Of a stretch of 64,000 nt of DNA, positions 48,984-60,398 are shown piece by piece. The stretch covers positions 3,090-67,089 of the forward strand of contig CANQLI010000007.1 of assembly GCA_947624675.1 (NCBI GenBank). Direction: 5' to 3'. The position numbers and the translations under genes were made by a program. The notes beneath the pieces are model-generated. The model worked only from the letters and a program-made list of their open reading frames with translations. It was not told the origin of the DNA and did no database searches. The stretch is from an uncultured Clostridia bacterium (GTDB lineage: Bacteria > Bacillota > Clostridia > Oscillospirales > Ruminococcaceae). Position 1 is the stretch's first letter; each line of letters opens with the position of its first letter.

Positions 48984-49004
48984 AGTGGGACTAAAAGTCC
49001 CACT
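48984..49004. repeat. Island palindrome, copy 1
   Basis: aGTGGGACT-AAA-AGTCCCACt. Confidence 0.9.
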
Positions 49005-49050
49005 TCTTTTCTCTGCGTAAAAATTTGTACTAAAATCTTTGAAATATCCC

Positions 49051-49079
49051 TTGACAAGTCGTAAGTATTGTGTTAAAAT
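49051..49079 (+). promoter_or_regulatory. Promoter of tRNA-Ser
   Basis: TTGACA, 17-bp spacer, TAAAAT preceded by TGT (extended -10), about 50 nt upstream of the tRNA. Confidence 0.6.
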
Positions 49080-49128
49080 AGCTAAGGGTCATGTGTCCCG
49101 TAGTTATTGACAATCTTAAGAATATAAT

Positions 49129-49217
49129 GGAGAGGTGTCCGAGTGGTTTAAGGAGCTGGTCTTGAAAACCAGTGATACGGCAACGTACCGTGGGTTCGAA
49201 TCCCACCCTCTCCGCCA
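49129..49217 (+). tRNA. tRNA-Ser (anticodon UGA)
   Basis: GGAGAGGTGTCCGAG...GGGTTCGAATCCCACCCTCTCCGCCA. Acceptor stem 7 bp, anticodon loop CTTGAAA, long variable arm, CCA end encoded. Confidence 0.95.
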
Positions 49218-49224
49218 CAGCAAT

Positions 49225-49271
49225 AGCTGTGTCAGGTTTTGTTAATTGCCTGACGCAGCTATTTTTCTTTT
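49225..49271 (+). terminator. Terminator after tRNA-Ser
   Basis: AGCTGTGTCAGG-loop-CCTGACGCAGCT followed by ATTTTTCTTTT. Confidence 0.7.
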
Positions 49272-49665
49272 GGATGTTTCTAGATATATCCGGTCAAATA
49301 GCGGTCAACGCAGTTTGACAATAGAATAACAGACTAAAACCGGAGGACTTCTGAGCGTTTCAAAAGCTCTGACTAACAGAACCCATTGGATAACTGTTTG
49401 CTGTATAATTTAATCTTTAATCAACTAAAACCGGCAAGGCAACCGTGATTGAGCGAGTCATCTTTTGAGAACTTACGAGAGTATATACACCCACGAAGGA
49501 CGGCAACCCGTGGACGAGAATACCTGCAAGCAGTCTTGCAAACACAGCGGCCAAAAGAAGTCAACAACTCCCCTGTTACCACAGATGTCACTACAACATT
49601 TAAAGTTGCATACACGCAGGCATAACATAGTTTTGGTCTATAAACAAATACAAGTAATCATAAAT

Positions 49666-49684
49666 GTGGGACTTTTAGTCCCAT
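49666..49684. repeat. Island palindrome, copy 2
   Basis: GTGGGACT-TTT-AGTCCCAT, with one terminal mismatch. Confidence 0.85.
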
Positions 49685-49693
49685 ATCATTTTA

Positions 49694-57445: not shown

Positions 57446-57456
57446 TTGATACTTAA

Positions 57457-57492
57457 CTGCCGACTGGTGTAAAAACCGGTCGGCTTTTTGTT
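57457..57492 (+). terminator. Terminator hairpin, copy 2
   Basis: Same 31 nt as copy 1. It ends about 5 nt before the RBS of the next gene, leaving no room for a promoter. Confidence 0.75.
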
Positions 57493-57510
57493 TTAAGGAG
57501 GTAAAAAAAT

Positions 57511-57840
57511 ATGCAATCAGATGTGTTTTTAACATTGTTAATGTACATATGTACAATTATAGTTGGTATAATTGTTGCTTTTTTTGTAATGATTATTGGA
57601 ATTTATTTCTTGCTATCTATAATATGTCGACATATACGAAAACAAGAAGAGAATGAAGCCGCATTAAGAGAAACTCATGCAAAATGGACATGGAAAGACA
57701 GTAATCCTGATAATTACGATTGCATTTGCAGTAATTGTGGCGCAGAAGAGGAACATTTATATCCCTATTGTCCTAACTGTGGTGCAAAAATGGATTTAAT
57801 AAATAATTTGGAGTTTAAGAAAGAGGAGATAAATAGTTGA
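57511..57840 (+). CDS. Single-pass membrane protein with a cytoplasmic zinc ribbon (109 aa)
   Basis: Hydrophobic N-terminus, then CSNCGAEEEHLYPYCPNCG. Its stop overlaps the start of the cytosine methyltransferase gene. Confidence 0.6.
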   Translation: MQSDVFLTLLMYICTIIVGIIVAFFVMIIGIYFLLSIICRHIRKQEENEAALRETHAKWTWKDSNPDNYDCICSNCGAEEEHLYPYCPNCGAKMDLINNLEFKKEEINS

Positions 57841-59567
57841 AAGAGTTAATAGTTGACAATTTCGCTGGGGGCGGTGGAGCAAGCACAGGGATTGAGCTTG
57901 CTACAGGCCGCCCGGTAGATATAGCTATAAATCACGATCCGGACGCTATTGCCATGCACAAAGCTAATCACCCGACGTCAAAGCATTACTGCGAGGATGT
58001 TTGGCAGGTGGATCCCGTAGAAGCCTGTGAGGGACATCCGGTAGCACTGGCGTGGTTTTCGCCTGACTGTAAACACTTCTCCCGCGCAAAGGGCGGAAAG
58101 CCGGTGGACAAAAATATCCGTGGGCTTGCATGGGTGGCGATTCGATGGGCATACACGGTGCGCCCTCGGTGCATTATGCTAGAAAACGTGCCAGAGATAC
58201 AGACATGGGGTCCGTTGGGCAAAGATAACAAGCCTATCAAGGAGCGGAGCGGAGAAACATTTACGGGATTTATTCTTGCACTTACAAACGGAATACCGAA
58301 ATATCATCCGGCATTCAACGAGATGTGCAATGCGCTCAATATTTCCCCTTCATCACATATTGCTTACACCCTATCACAGGGATTGGGATACAAAGTCGAG
58401 TACAGGACGCTAAAATCTTGCGATTACGGTGCACCTACCACACGGAAGCGTTTTTATTTAATCGCCCGTTGCGACGGTAAGCCCATTATCTGGCCGGAAC
58501 CGACACACGGACCGAAAGACAGCGCAGCGGTCAAGTCCGGAAAGCTGCTGCCGTACCACACAGCCGCAGAATGTATCGACTGGAGTATCCCGGCGAAAAG
58601 TATTTTTGAACGAGACAAGCCTTTAGCAGAAAAGACGCTTCGCAGGATAGCGAGAGGTATTAAGAAGTTTGTGATTGATAATCCTGAGCCGTTCATTGTG
58701 AACTATAAGTACGAAAATGAACCGGAAAGTATTGAAAAGCCTCTTTCAACAATCACAACTGTCGGGAGTCATTATGTCGTTACACCTACGATTATGTGTA
58801 ACAACGAGAACAATGTCGGTGCAAGTGTGGAATCGCCGGTGCCTACCGTTACGACAGGAAATCGAAACTATCTTGTGGCTCCTACACTTATCCAGTATCA
58901 CGATGAGCAGGGACAGGACGAGGTTCGTGGTCAAGGAATTGACGAGCCAGTCAGAACGGTCGATACATCTAACCGATATGCGTTGTCTTGTGCGCACATT
59001 ATGAAAAATTACGCAGGCGGATATACGGGAGCCGGAAGCTCTGCGGATAAGCCATTAGATACTGTAACGGCGAAAGACCATAACAGCCTTGTCACAGTTC
59101 ATATTATGACGATGCGGAATAACATGGACGGGCAAAAGGCGGACGAACCTCTGACGACCATATCATGCAGCGGAGCGCACCACGCGGAGGTGCAGGCGTT
59201 TCTGGTCAAGTATTTTTCAACCGGCACAGCAAAGCCGGTCGACGAGCCACTGGATACCATAACAACAAAGGATCGATTCGCTGTAATCACTGTGCATGGA
59301 CAGGAATACATAATCACGGACATCCGCATTAGAATGTTACAACCGAGAGAACTGTTCAATGCGCAAGGATTTCCACAAGACTACATCATTGATACAGACG
59401 CTAACGGAAAACCATATCCGAAATCAAAGCAGGTCGCCCGTTGTGGAAACGCCGTCACACCGCCTGTTCCTACCGCACTTGTGAAAGCAAATCTTCCGGA
59501 GCTGTGTGAAAGGAGAACTAAAGAAGTAGAGAGACAGCAAACACCCCTGAGAGCGAACGGAGATTAA
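57837..59567 (+). CDS. DNA (cytosine-5)-methyltransferase, orphan
   Basis: 576 aa. Motif I DNFAGGGGAS, motif IV FSPDCKHFS (catalytic Cys), motif VI IMLENV, then QGFPQDY and CGNAV, with a long variable region. TTG start. Confidence 0.9.
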   Translation: MKELIVDNFAGGGGASTGIELATGRPVDIAINHDPDAIAMHKANHPTSKHYCEDVWQVDPVEACEGHPVALAWFSPDCKHFSRAKGGKPVDKNIRGLAWVAIRWAYTVRPRCIMLENVPEIQTWGPLGKDNKPIKERSGETFTGFILALTNGIPKYHPAFNEMCNALNISPSSHIAYTLSQGLGYKVEYRTLKSCDYGAPTTRKRFYLIARCDGKPIIWPEPTHGPKDSAAVKSGKLLPYHTAAECIDWSIPAKSIFERDKPLAEKTLRRIARGIKKFVIDNPEPFIVNYKYENEPESIEKPLSTITTVGSHYVVTPTIMCNNENNVGASVESPVPTVTTGNRNYLVAPTLIQYHDEQGQDEVRGQGIDEPVRTVDTSNRYALSCAHIMKNYAGGYTGAGSSADKPLDTVTAKDHNSLVTVHIMTMRNNMDGQKADEPLTTISCSGAHHAEVQAFLVKYFSTGTAKPVDEPLDTITTKDRFAVITVHGQEYIITDIRIRMLQPRELFNAQGFPQDYIIDTDANGKPYPKSKQVARCGNAVTPPVPTALVKANLPELCERRTKEVERQQTPLRANGD

Positions 59568-59568
59568 A

Positions 59569-60354
59569 ATGACAATTAAATTATTAAAAGGCGATTGTTT
59601 AGAAATAATGAATGTTATACCTGATAAAAGCATTGATATGATTCTTTGTGATTTACCATATGGCGTTACCGCTAAAAATAAATGGGACACAATTATTCCA
59701 TTTGAAAAGTTGTGGGGATGTTATGATAGGGTCACAAAAGAAAATTGCGCAATAATCTTATTCGGACAAGATAAATTTACAGTTGAATGCATTATGTCAA
59801 ATAAAAAAATACATAGGTATAACTTAATTTGGGACAAAGTATTACCGTCTGGATTTCTAAACGCTAATAGAATGCCACTAAGAGAACATGAGGATATAAT
59901 GGTGTTTTATAAAAAACTACCCACATATAATCCACAAAAAATTAAAGGAGTGCCATGTCATAAAAAAGGAAAGTCTGTTGGCAAAATGAATGACTCAATA
60001 CTTCAAAATAATAATTATGGGAATTCTAGATGTGTCGAAACAAAGGGCGATATGAAATTTCCGACTTCTATATTGAAGTTCCAAAAACCGCATCCAAGTA
60101 AAAGTGTTCATCCTACGCAAAAACCAATTGAATTGCTTGAATACTTGATTAAAACTTATACAAATGAAGGAGATACCGTATTAGACAATTGTATGGGAAG
60201 TGGCAGCACCGGCATTGCCTGTGTGAACACCAACAGAAATTTTATAGGAATAGAGTTAGATAGCAATTATTTTGAGACTGCAAGAAAAAGAATTGAAGAA
60301 TCGGAGAGACAGCAAATGAGGTCAAAACAGGATTCAGCTATTAAGGGCTCATAA
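59569..60354 (+). CDS. Beta-class N6-adenine/N4-cytosine DNA methyltransferase, orphan
   Basis: 261 aa. Motif IV variant CDLPYG precedes motif I DNCMGSGSTGIA (N6_N4_Mtase order). No endonuclease gene is adjacent. Confidence 0.87.
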   Translation: MTIKLLKGDCLEIMNVIPDKSIDMILCDLPYGVTAKNKWDTIIPFEKLWGCYDRVTKENCAIILFGQDKFTVECIMSNKKIHRYNLIWDKVLPSGFLNANRMPLREHEDIMVFYKKLPTYNPQKIKGVPCHKKGKSVGKMNDSILQNNNYGNSRCVETKGDMKFPTSILKFQKPHPSKSVHPTQKPIELLEYLIKTYTNEGDTVLDNCMGSGSTGIACVNTNRNFIGIELDSNYFETARKRIEESERQQMRSKQDSAIKGS

Positions 60355-60373
60355 CTCTTGATATAAAAATCAA

Positions 60374-60398
60374 GTGGGACTGGGACTAAAAGTCCCAC
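60374..60398. repeat. Island palindrome, copy 6 (with a partial arm duplication)
   Basis: GTGGGAC-TGGGACT-AAA-AGTCCCAC. Confidence 0.85.

Follow-up and report, generated by a model that had tools for sequence, protein, structure and literature searches.

A 19-bp palindrome, GTGGGACT-NNN-AGTCCCAC, recurs six times in and beside an integrative element of an uncultured Clostridia bacterium (family Ruminococcaceae), scattered between genes around a tyrosine integrase-parA-parB (int-parA-parB) module. We studied it in a 64-kb stretch of contig CANQLI010000007.1 (assembly GCA_947624675.1), referred to below as the window. On balance, we interpret the palindromes as putative scattered loading and operator sites of the element's own ParB. 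An earlier note on this DNA had put forward scattered parS- or centromere-like sites as one hypothesis among several, and comparative data appear to favour it, in that the palindrome follows ParA and ParB from 61% down to about 32% identity.

Distribution of the Palindrome in the Window

The window was searched with the pattern GTGGGACTNNNAGTCCCAC, allowing up to two mismatches, and 100 dinucleotide-preserving shuffles served as control. Six palindromes were found, at 48985, 49666, 50940, 52760, 53416 and 60380, each with at most one mismatch, and the shuffled sequences gave no match. All six lie within 11.4 kb, with none in the remaining 48.9 kb of the window and none expected; a search with the 17-nt core, three mismatches allowed, yielded no credible further copy elsewhere in the window. 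The six-copy palindrome is a real, non-chance observation. The copies are as follows.

48985-49003, copy 1: GTGGGACTAAAAGTCCCAC, 0 mismatches, centre AAA; joins a 72-nt integrase 3' remnant to the promoter of tRNA-Ser
49666-49684, copy 2: GTGGGACTTTTAGTCCCAT, 1 mismatch, centre TTT; between tRNA-Ser and int
50940-50958, copy 3: GTGGGACTTTTAGTCCCAC, 0 mismatches, centre TTT; between int and parA
52760-52778, copy 4: GTGGGACTTTTAGTCCCAC, 0 mismatches, centre TTT; 8 nt past the parB stop, no T-tract
53416-53434, copy 5: GTGAGACTAAAAGTCCCAC, 1 mismatch, centre AAA; 5' of a gene for a 1004-aa surface protein
60380-60398, copy 6: CTGGGACTAAAAGTCCCAC, 1 mismatch, centre AAA; 25 nt past the stop of an N6/N4 methyltransferase gene, before a SpaA-domain adhesin gene

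The description in the earlier note holds in its essentials: there are six copies with arms identical or one base off, every copy is intergenic, and the centre is AAA in three and TTT in three, so that both polarities are present, here among co-directional genes. Four of the start coordinates given there were exact; 48984 should read 48985, and 60374 is the start of a duplicated half-arm that precedes copy 6 (GTGGGACT-GGGACT-AAA-AGTCCCAC), the best 19-mer beginning at 60380. Its statement that the palindrome punctuates the present element six times needs correction, since copy 1 lies to the left of tRNA-Ser, at the integrase remnant, outside the present element. The look-alike that it placed at 22451 belongs to an unrelated terminator hairpin on the minus strand, with a 9-bp stem (AACAAGTCC...GGACTTGTT) and a T-run, of which it forms the loop and the 3' arm. 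Successive copies are 681, 1274, 1820, 656 and 6964 nt apart with genes between them, and these irregular spacings exclude a CRISPR array, as the note had said.

The immediate surroundings differ from copy to copy. Copy 1 is terminator-like, its stem being followed by TTCTTTTCT. Copy 2 lies about 105 nt 5' of the int promoter, which has its -35 box at 49770, and 177 nt ahead of the start codon of int, with a second hairpin of 13 bp downstream at 49694-49723; it is kept in the related loci L088, L083 and L156 and missing from the lineage designated B below. Copy 3 begins 5 nt past the int stop and ends 27 nt ahead of the parA ATG; TCTTTTTTATTTT and the ribosome-binding site of parA come next. 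Copy 4 is placed directly 3' of parB, the position typical of type Ia centromeres. Copy 5 begins 11 nt past a -10 box and covers approximately +5 to +24 of the inferred transcript of the 1004-aa gene; the copy 5 variant and its promoter are both retained in L088.

Co-occurrence with ParA and ParB

The genes of the module are as follows.

49843-50934, + strand: int, tyrosine integrase with Pfam Phage_integrase and SAM-like domains
50986-51819, + strand: parA, Walker-type ParA/MinD-like ATPase of 277 aa (KGGVGKT; Pfam AAA_31 and CbiA)
51816-52751, + strand: parB, 311 aa, overlapping parA, with a ParB_N domain and a helix-turn-helix (HTH); the proposed binder of the palindrome

The ParB_N domain scores 34.3 bits against a Pfam cut-off of 26.3, and HTH_23 falls below its cut-off. 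The protein contains GHRRLEA, which fits the GxxRxxA motif, and a recognition helix NRKTCHRYL; its box III, ENxxR, reads SNIYR. Its sequence matches the PDB structures of Spo0J and Noc (4UMK, 1VZ0, 7NFU), and the same PDB sequence search detected no relationship to SopB. Copies of the repeated cis site flank the parAB pair, one ending 27 nt ahead of parA and another lying 8 nt beyond parB.

A scan of 596 Gb of public genomes, in which about 140 matches are expected by chance (our own estimate, 596e9/4^16), returned mostly single matches spread over diverse phyla, at chance level for a 16-base pattern. Loci with multiple copies all come from metagenome-assembled genomes (MAGs) of Oscillospirales from rumen and rabbit gut. 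These were examined as fetched blocks of at most 8 kb, so that each element is only partly visible, and within the blocks tblastn found a homologue of the window ParB at 6 of the 15 multi-copy loci. Contrary to the earlier note, the motif is not private to one element, the same palindrome being present in related elements of Oscillospirales MAGs and metagenomes.

Two of these loci, L083 and L088, carry the same int-parA-parB module as the window at 90-95% DNA identity, with palindromes in the same places and the same one-base variants; together with the window they belong to what we call lineage A. Other loci have a variant, GTGGGACTT-S-AAGTCCCAC, between small genes of mobile-element cargo (serine recombinases, ToxN, a MuF-methylase-helicase set, MobL relaxase and leucine-rich-repeat proteins). 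Conservation of the flanks ends about 3 nt beyond the motif.

Further lineages extend the association. Lineages B, C and D, listed here, were found through the protein alone and not through the motif; lineage E is from the rumen and lineage F from the human gut.

Lineage B (L157, L158, L162): ParB 61% identical; also beside tRNA-Ser(tga); 4-7 scattered GTGGGAC-ATAAA-GTCCCAC
Lineage C (L164): ParB 44-45% identical; ParA/ParB contig; three scattered TGTGACA-NNN-TGTCACA
Lineage D (L161): ParB 45% identical; large serine recombinase, ImmA/ImmR-like pair and SSB; seven scattered TGTGACA-NNN-TGTCACA
Ruminococcus albus 7 plasmid pRUMAL01 (L171): ParB 36% identical; three TGTGTCACGCGTGACACA within 1.1 kb upstream of parA and one more

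ParA and ParB are the only genes common to all lineages with such repeated palindromes, because L161 has a serine recombinase and no tyrosine integrase, whereas tyrosine integrases are found in lineages A, B and E. In lineages A, B, C and D a palindrome stands 44-48 nt ahead of the parA ATG, whatever its sequence. The type of site also tracks two residues of the recognition helix, TC[HT]RY in lineages A and B occurring with GTGGGAC and [TS]YYRY in lineages C and D with TGTGACA.

On pRUMAL01, TGTGTCACGCGTGACACA is a perfect palindrome of 18 bp found at 18156, 19027, 19149 and 31423, the last one 11 kb away, and its half-site is one base off that of canonical parS (GTTTCAC). It is likely to be the parS or operator of this megaplasmid.

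Palindromes within parB in the Rumen Lineage

In lineage E, in which ParB is about 32% identical to that of the window and has a DUF6075 C-terminal domain, with parA upstream and int nearby, the palindrome is located within the coding sequence of parB. There are one to four copies depending on the locus, mostly in 108-nt (36-codon) in-frame tandem repeats that encode ...QVGLEVPL...; L141 (10721-11063), L004, L028, L041, L103, L142, L144 and L145 have three to four in the linker past the HTH. In ruminal_MAG_77, three contigs have a palindrome-bearing parB.

Among 28 distinct repeat units, 18 of the 19 columns in the palindrome are invariant, compared with 7 of 89 outside it. All six third-codon positions of the palindrome are invariant, and the sole variable base is at the centre, where the change is non-synonymous (E to Q). 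A search of these arrays with three mismatches allowed gave exact copies only and no degenerate palindromes. Since synonymous sites are invariant in the palindrome while the flanks drift, the constraint acts at the level of the nucleic acid, and it does so where a terminator is implausible; the in-frame palindromes have no T-tract. Helical phasing of the arrays was considered and dropped, as 108 bp corresponds to 10.3 turns and is out of phase.

Proposed Function

From these comparisons we infer putative ParB binding, clamp loading, partition and silencing at the palindromes. The HTH of a ParB dimer would read both 7-8-bp arms (core TGGGACT / AGTCCCA) with the central 3 nt unconstrained, which would account for the occurrence of both polarities. 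ParB would probably load at the palindromes as a CTP-dependent clamp and then spread or slide on the adjoining DNA, and ParA and ParB together would segregate the excised, plasmid-like form of the element. In this centromere role, the sites would represent one centromere broken into scattered singles, as in the prophage-plasmid N15. The sites stand at gene boundaries, one of them at a promoter, so that ParB bound there may in addition lower int-parAB and cargo-gene transcription, much as KorB does from its operators (OB) on RK2. The copies with T-tracts (48985, 50940 and perhaps 49666) may double as intrinsic terminators or attenuators in the mRNA, and identical repeated sites could form joints for module exchange or deletion.

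Several observations weigh against ParB as the reader of the palindromes. The relation between site and ParB distance is not monotonic, a lineage with 32% identity having the window's site and lineages with 45% being without it, and the co-variation therefore amounts to about one switch event. The human-gut lineage F (13 loci) has an int-parA-parB module whose ParB is 54-58% identical to that of the rumen lineage, and lineages E and F share the recognition helix SRKQIYRY, yet only E bears the site: the lineage F elements are without GTGGGACTTSAAGTCCCAC, and no such palindrome lies within 10 kb on either side at the 13 loci. The 3-nt spacer implies a half-site spacing unlike that of the canonical 16-bp parS, and stop codons directly adjoin many of the copies. 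In lineage B the centre reads ATAAA on the sense strand in 8 of 11 copies, a bias for which a symmetric dimer has no need, and variants that preserve pairing (ATG...CAT, CTG...CAG, GTGAGAC...GTCTCAC) are as expected from selection on a hairpin. Across lineages, T-tracts are enriched on the sense strand (mean 4.2 versus 3.0 T in 8 nt, p = 0.02), where 16 of 37 copies have at least five T in the 8 nt downstream, versus 6 of 37, and the hairpin and T-run between int and parA are conserved in lineages A and B.

A de novo search of the lineage F loci, again covering 10 kb on either side, found no repeated palindrome, one 12-bp-arm palindrome upstream of parA, and direct repeats. At L133 (7566-7753) and its human-gut relatives, five to six direct repeats of TGACAGCACTTT adjoin a tRNA-derived att fragment, and a single palindrome with 12-bp arms, AAGTCGATTACA..TGTAATCGACTT, lies between int and parA.

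Alternative Explanations

It is very likely that some copies are also terminators or attenuators, because of the T-tract enrichment, the conserved int/parA hairpin with its T-run, the pair-preserving variants and the strand bias of the centre. The assertion that the copies are not simply terminators is borne out, with the qualification that some probably do terminate (about 40% across lineages have a sense-strand T-tract), and the earlier figure of two copies followed by a U-tract is roughly right, our scan calling three of the six terminator-like (hairpins at 48983, 49664 and 50938). A more radical proposal is that the palindromes act in RNA only, as intrinsic terminators or attenuators or as terminal stabilising stem-loops, and owe their shared sequence to copying or to an RNA-binding factor. 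All six copies do fold, at -17 to -19 kcal/mol for four of them (10-pair stems), -15 for 60380 and -10 for 53416; many start at or within a few nucleotides of a stop codon, with the TAA sometimes within the extended stem, and some variants keep base pairing, as noted above together with the strand-biased centre of lineage B. Copy 5 and its lineage B counterparts lie a few nucleotides past a -10 box, and a 5' stem-loop just after the promoter stabilises mRNA in Firmicutes.

RNA-only action leaves unexplained why unrelated terminators of one element should share an exact sequence, why that sequence is retained between elements whose ParB proteins are 32% identical, and why the motif constantly travels with ParAB. 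No passing T-tract is found at 52760, 53416 and 60380, at copies of the TGTGACA type, or at the copies within parB, and these last show the strictest conservation. The RNA stem is also weakened by A.C mismatches, which recur on the sense strand (53416; L162 2337 and 8593), and copy 1 persists beside a gene remnant. Hairpins working in RNA, the alternative already raised in the earlier note, therefore retain their stable folds, some T-tracts and the conserved int/parA hairpin in their favour, while the other evidence favours parS-like sites; as a complete explanation we consider them unlikely.

The observations could also be combined, such that one 19-bp sequence would serve as ParB loading site, as intercistronic terminator or 5' stem-loop, and as module-swap joint, with integron-like cassette exchange in Clostridia as the stronger form of the idea. 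In that case the partition protein would have two tasks, segregation and insulation, for each block of genes, and sister lineages would have written the centromere into the parB frame as a 36-codon repeat. Taken jointly, these proposals have in our estimate a slim chance of being right.

We give a low probability to an operator for another DNA-binding protein of the element or host, such as the small HTH-like open reading frame (ORF) at 53074-53316 or an unseen repressor, comparable to mycobacteriophage stoperators or the conserved inverted repeats of phiC31. Dispersed intergenic and promoter-proximal positions would suit a global repressor, the human-gut ParB lineage is without the site despite a recognition helix identical to that of lineage E, and the fetched loci show only part of each element. 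The small ORF, which the earlier note had named as a candidate, has no Pfam match and has homologues only in L088 and L156 among the palindrome-bearing loci; since it occurs in the window's own lineage only, it cannot account for the broader distribution. The only DNA-binding gene common to lineages A-E and pRUMAL01 is parB, and the lineage E arrays are located inside parB itself.

That the palindromes are primarily recombination joints or cassette boundaries, whether as crossover points of a site-specific recombinase or as hot spots of short homology with exchangeable genes between them, we regard as highly improbable. The repeats do seem to have served as joints for deletion or exchange, because there are four independent cases in which homology between mosaic relatives is interrupted at the palindrome. 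Copy 1 marks the exact start of homology between the window and L003, 1 nt before the palindrome; a 98-nt repeat of the int 3' end breaks off 6-7 nt past the palindrome; homology of L141 to L007, L110 and L027 begins exactly with the palindrome's first base; and a 79-nt repeat in L089 starts 1 nt inside it. The 98-nt direct repeat (48913-49010 versus 50868-50965, 92% identity) comprises the final 72 nt of int together with the palindrome; its left copy is fused to the tRNA-Ser promoter, and in L003 the order palindrome-promoter-tRNA-Ser is present without the int remnant. This arrangement suggests a past deletion or exchange between two palindromes.

The motif also lies directly 3' of ORFs, like attC in integrons. 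Tyrosine recombinases use a 6-8-bp overlap and serine recombinases a 2-bp symmetric core, and the 8-3-8 geometry fits neither; the accompanying enzyme is a tyrosine integrase in lineages A, B and E and a serine recombinase in D. Arrays in the parB frame are not cassette ends, both polarities occur among co-directional genes, and BLAST alignments of mosaic elements will end at conserved intergenic repeats of any kind. Integron attC in particular was rejected, since the perfect 19-bp hairpins are without bulges or the extrahelical bases of attC and the integrase is of the phage type with a SAM-like N-terminal domain, besides the occurrence with a serine recombinase.

A host-wide chromosomal repeat of the repetitive extragenic palindromic (REP) type, dense here by happenstance, is scarcely credible: the same 19-mer does occur within longer genome-wide repeats of an unrelated deltaproteobacterial MAG (17 contigs) and of Nanoarchaeia, which indicates that such hairpins can spread, but the 48.9 kb of chromosomal DNA in the window contain no copy, the flanks are not conserved past about 3 nt, and the copies in relatives are in mobile-element settings (MobL relaxase, MuF-methylase-helicase, ToxN, recombinases, ParAB). 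REP or BIME repeats mobilised with RAYT were likewise set aside, with no copy in the 48.9 kb of flanking chromosome and no RAYT-like gene among the scanned ORFs. In the genomes just mentioned (Deltaproteobacteria MAG NP119, with L001, L005, L012 and 14 further loci; Nanoarchaeia L006, L063, L081 and L097), the hairpin is embedded in longer, conserved and unrelated repeats on many contigs; these look like independent repeat or RNA families whose common stem is coincidental.

Comparison with Known Systems

The F-plasmid SopB site is TGGGACCACGGTCCCA, TGGGACC-AC-GGTCCCA (PMC3177203). As in F, the present system has a perfect inverted repeat that would be bound by a ParB-family HTH protein encoded beside a ParA ATPase. 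The half-sites are nearly identical (TGGGACC in F, TGGGACT here, with the core TGGGACT-NNN-AGTCCCA), and a non-palindromic centre is tolerated in both. F sopC lies just downstream of sopB, and the rumen lineage likewise has a tandem array at the 3' end of parB. The systems differ in the spacer, 2 nt in F and 3 nt here; in arrangement, with 12 tandem 43-bp repeats in F and single copies spread over at least 11 kb here; and in protein and host, ParB here being Spo0J/Noc-like by sequence and encoded by an integrative element of Clostridia. Because the protein matches Spo0J and Noc and not SopB, the likeness of the sites to those of F and N15 is a resemblance and not evidence of descent.

N15 has four separate inverted repeat (IR) sites, GTGCGACC-NN-GGTCGCAC, which are single palindromes with their own flanks (PMC7205306). 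It shares with the present element a centromere, here a putative one, composed of dispersed single palindromes, the outer GTG..GAC / GTC..CAC frame of the IR, and the condition of a temperate mobile element that needs partition when extrachromosomal. N15 SopB bound at the IRs also affects nearby promoters. On the other hand, N15, an enterobacterial prophage, exists as a linear plasmid and not in integrated form, its protein is of another lineage, and it has four sites as compared with six here, several of which are terminator-like.

KorB of RK2 is a ParB-family CTP clamp with dispersed palindromic operators that acts in partition and, by sliding, in long-range silencing (PMC11790492). Both systems have a short palindromic operator (TTTAGCSGCTAAA in RK2) at many places, promoter-proximal and distal, and a ParB-family protein paired with a ParA (IncC in RK2) for partition. 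RK2 has 12 OB sites. The dispersal here is similar, with six sites over 11.4 kb, one of them at about +5 of a predicted promoter and others at gene ends. In contrast to RK2, the host lineage is Gram-positive and the operator sequence differs, and no KorA- or TrbA-like clamp-locking partner turned up in Pfam scans of the neighbouring ORFs, no further search having been made.

Spo0J and Noc are the closest sequence relatives with solved structures, and they share ParB_N, the HTH, GxxRxxA and several dispersed palindromic sites. One Bacillus subtilis parS lies inside spo0J, and the arrays within parB of the rumen lineage are similar in this respect. Canonical parS is a 16-bp palindrome without spacer (TGTTNCACGTGAAACA), whereas the site here is 8-3-8 with another half-site; Spo0J and Noc are chromosomal, whereas ParB here is element-borne and its box III departs from ENxxR as described above.

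Mycobacteriophage stoperators, the conserved inverted repeats of phiC31 and T4-type PeSL cassettes also place a short sequence in many intergenic gaps and at module boundaries, with roles in silencing or shuffling. They resemble the present case in having one short intergenic repeat at module boundaries of a mobile genome, and differ in being bound by phage repressors or forming promoter and stem-loop units, with no tie to ParAB; stoperators are, moreover, asymmetric and oriented.

Gene Context and Other Repeats

The remaining features of the element and its surroundings are as follows.

48913-48984, + strand: 3'-end remnant of an integrase gene, 72 nt
49129-49217, + strand: tRNA-Ser(tga) (ARAGORN and Rfam); integration site of the element, attL side
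53074-53316 (or from 53044): small ORF, 80-90 aa, HTH-like, no Pfam match
53376-53404, + strand: promoter-like site TTGCAA-17-TGgTATAAT, just 5' of copy 5, kept in L088
53561-56575: 1004-aa dockerin-like protein
57837-59567: C5 methyltransferase
59569-60354: N6/N4 methyltransferase
from 60487, extending past the window end: SpaA-domain adhesin

Between tRNA-Ser and int lies a non-coding block of about 350 nt (49285-49650). Three lineage A elements agree in it at about 99% identity, and lineage B matches it at about 90%, although the lineage B ParB is only 61% identical. A structured RNA was considered and is unsupported: the block has no Rfam match and a fold z-score of about -1 on both strands, and its covariation is slight, with 4 of 90 predicted pairs keeping their pairing through two-sided changes and a covariation term of -0.25 kcal/mol. 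It may be an attP arm of the integrase or some regulatory element. Rfam searches of the whole window and of 48800-53600 returned two tRNAs and nothing else.

In L083 (3900-4000), the tRNA-Ser beside the element keeps its 5' two-thirds, has a diverged 3' end and is not called by ARAGORN; it adjoins a tRNA-Tyr/Thr/Pro cluster and could be an att copy that has decayed or a secondary site of integration.

A second repeated hairpin, GCCGACTGGTGTAAAAACCGGTCGGC followed by a T-run, occurs at 56661-56696 and 57459-57494, in copies 94% identical. The two bracket an ORF for a 241-aa coiled-coil protein with a perfect TTGACA-18-TATAAT promoter, which looks like an inserted, self-contained gene unit.

Viral contigs gave no relative of the system. 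A scan with the motif yielded 11 single-copy matches, taken as chance, and no multi-copy locus; a search with the ParB alignment found no relative; and scans with the lineage B and D palindromes found only unrelated high-G+C phage contigs, none with a ParB homologue. Some of these carry many copies of TGTGACAC-N-GTGTCACA. Three IMG/VR contigs of about 56% G+C (L188, L178 and L186) have five to nine dispersed TGTGACA-NNN-TGTCACA and no ParB homologue, and may represent a dispersed phage operator of another kind. A literature search for the arm sequences returned primer coincidences only.

Significance

The system is of a known kind (ParABS, KorB-like); its novelty lies in the host lineage, in how the sites are arranged and in the in-frame arrays found in a sister lineage. 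If ParB binds the sites, the element would provide a Gram-positive, integrative counterpart of KorB-OB and of the scattered N15 centromere. In gut Clostridia, ParB-CTP clamps have received little study as agents of partition and silencing. The lineages may offer a specificity-switch set for DNA recognition by ParB, with the same arms combined with the spacers AAA, ATAAA and TSA, a switch to TGTGACA in a sister clade, and a half-site near that of F SopB on a Spo0J/Noc-like protein. The putative in-frame centromere array in parB would be an unusual case of a protein gene that carries its own binding sites under dual constraint. The motif is also a simple marker with which to find and delimit this family of mobile elements in rumen and gut metagenomes.

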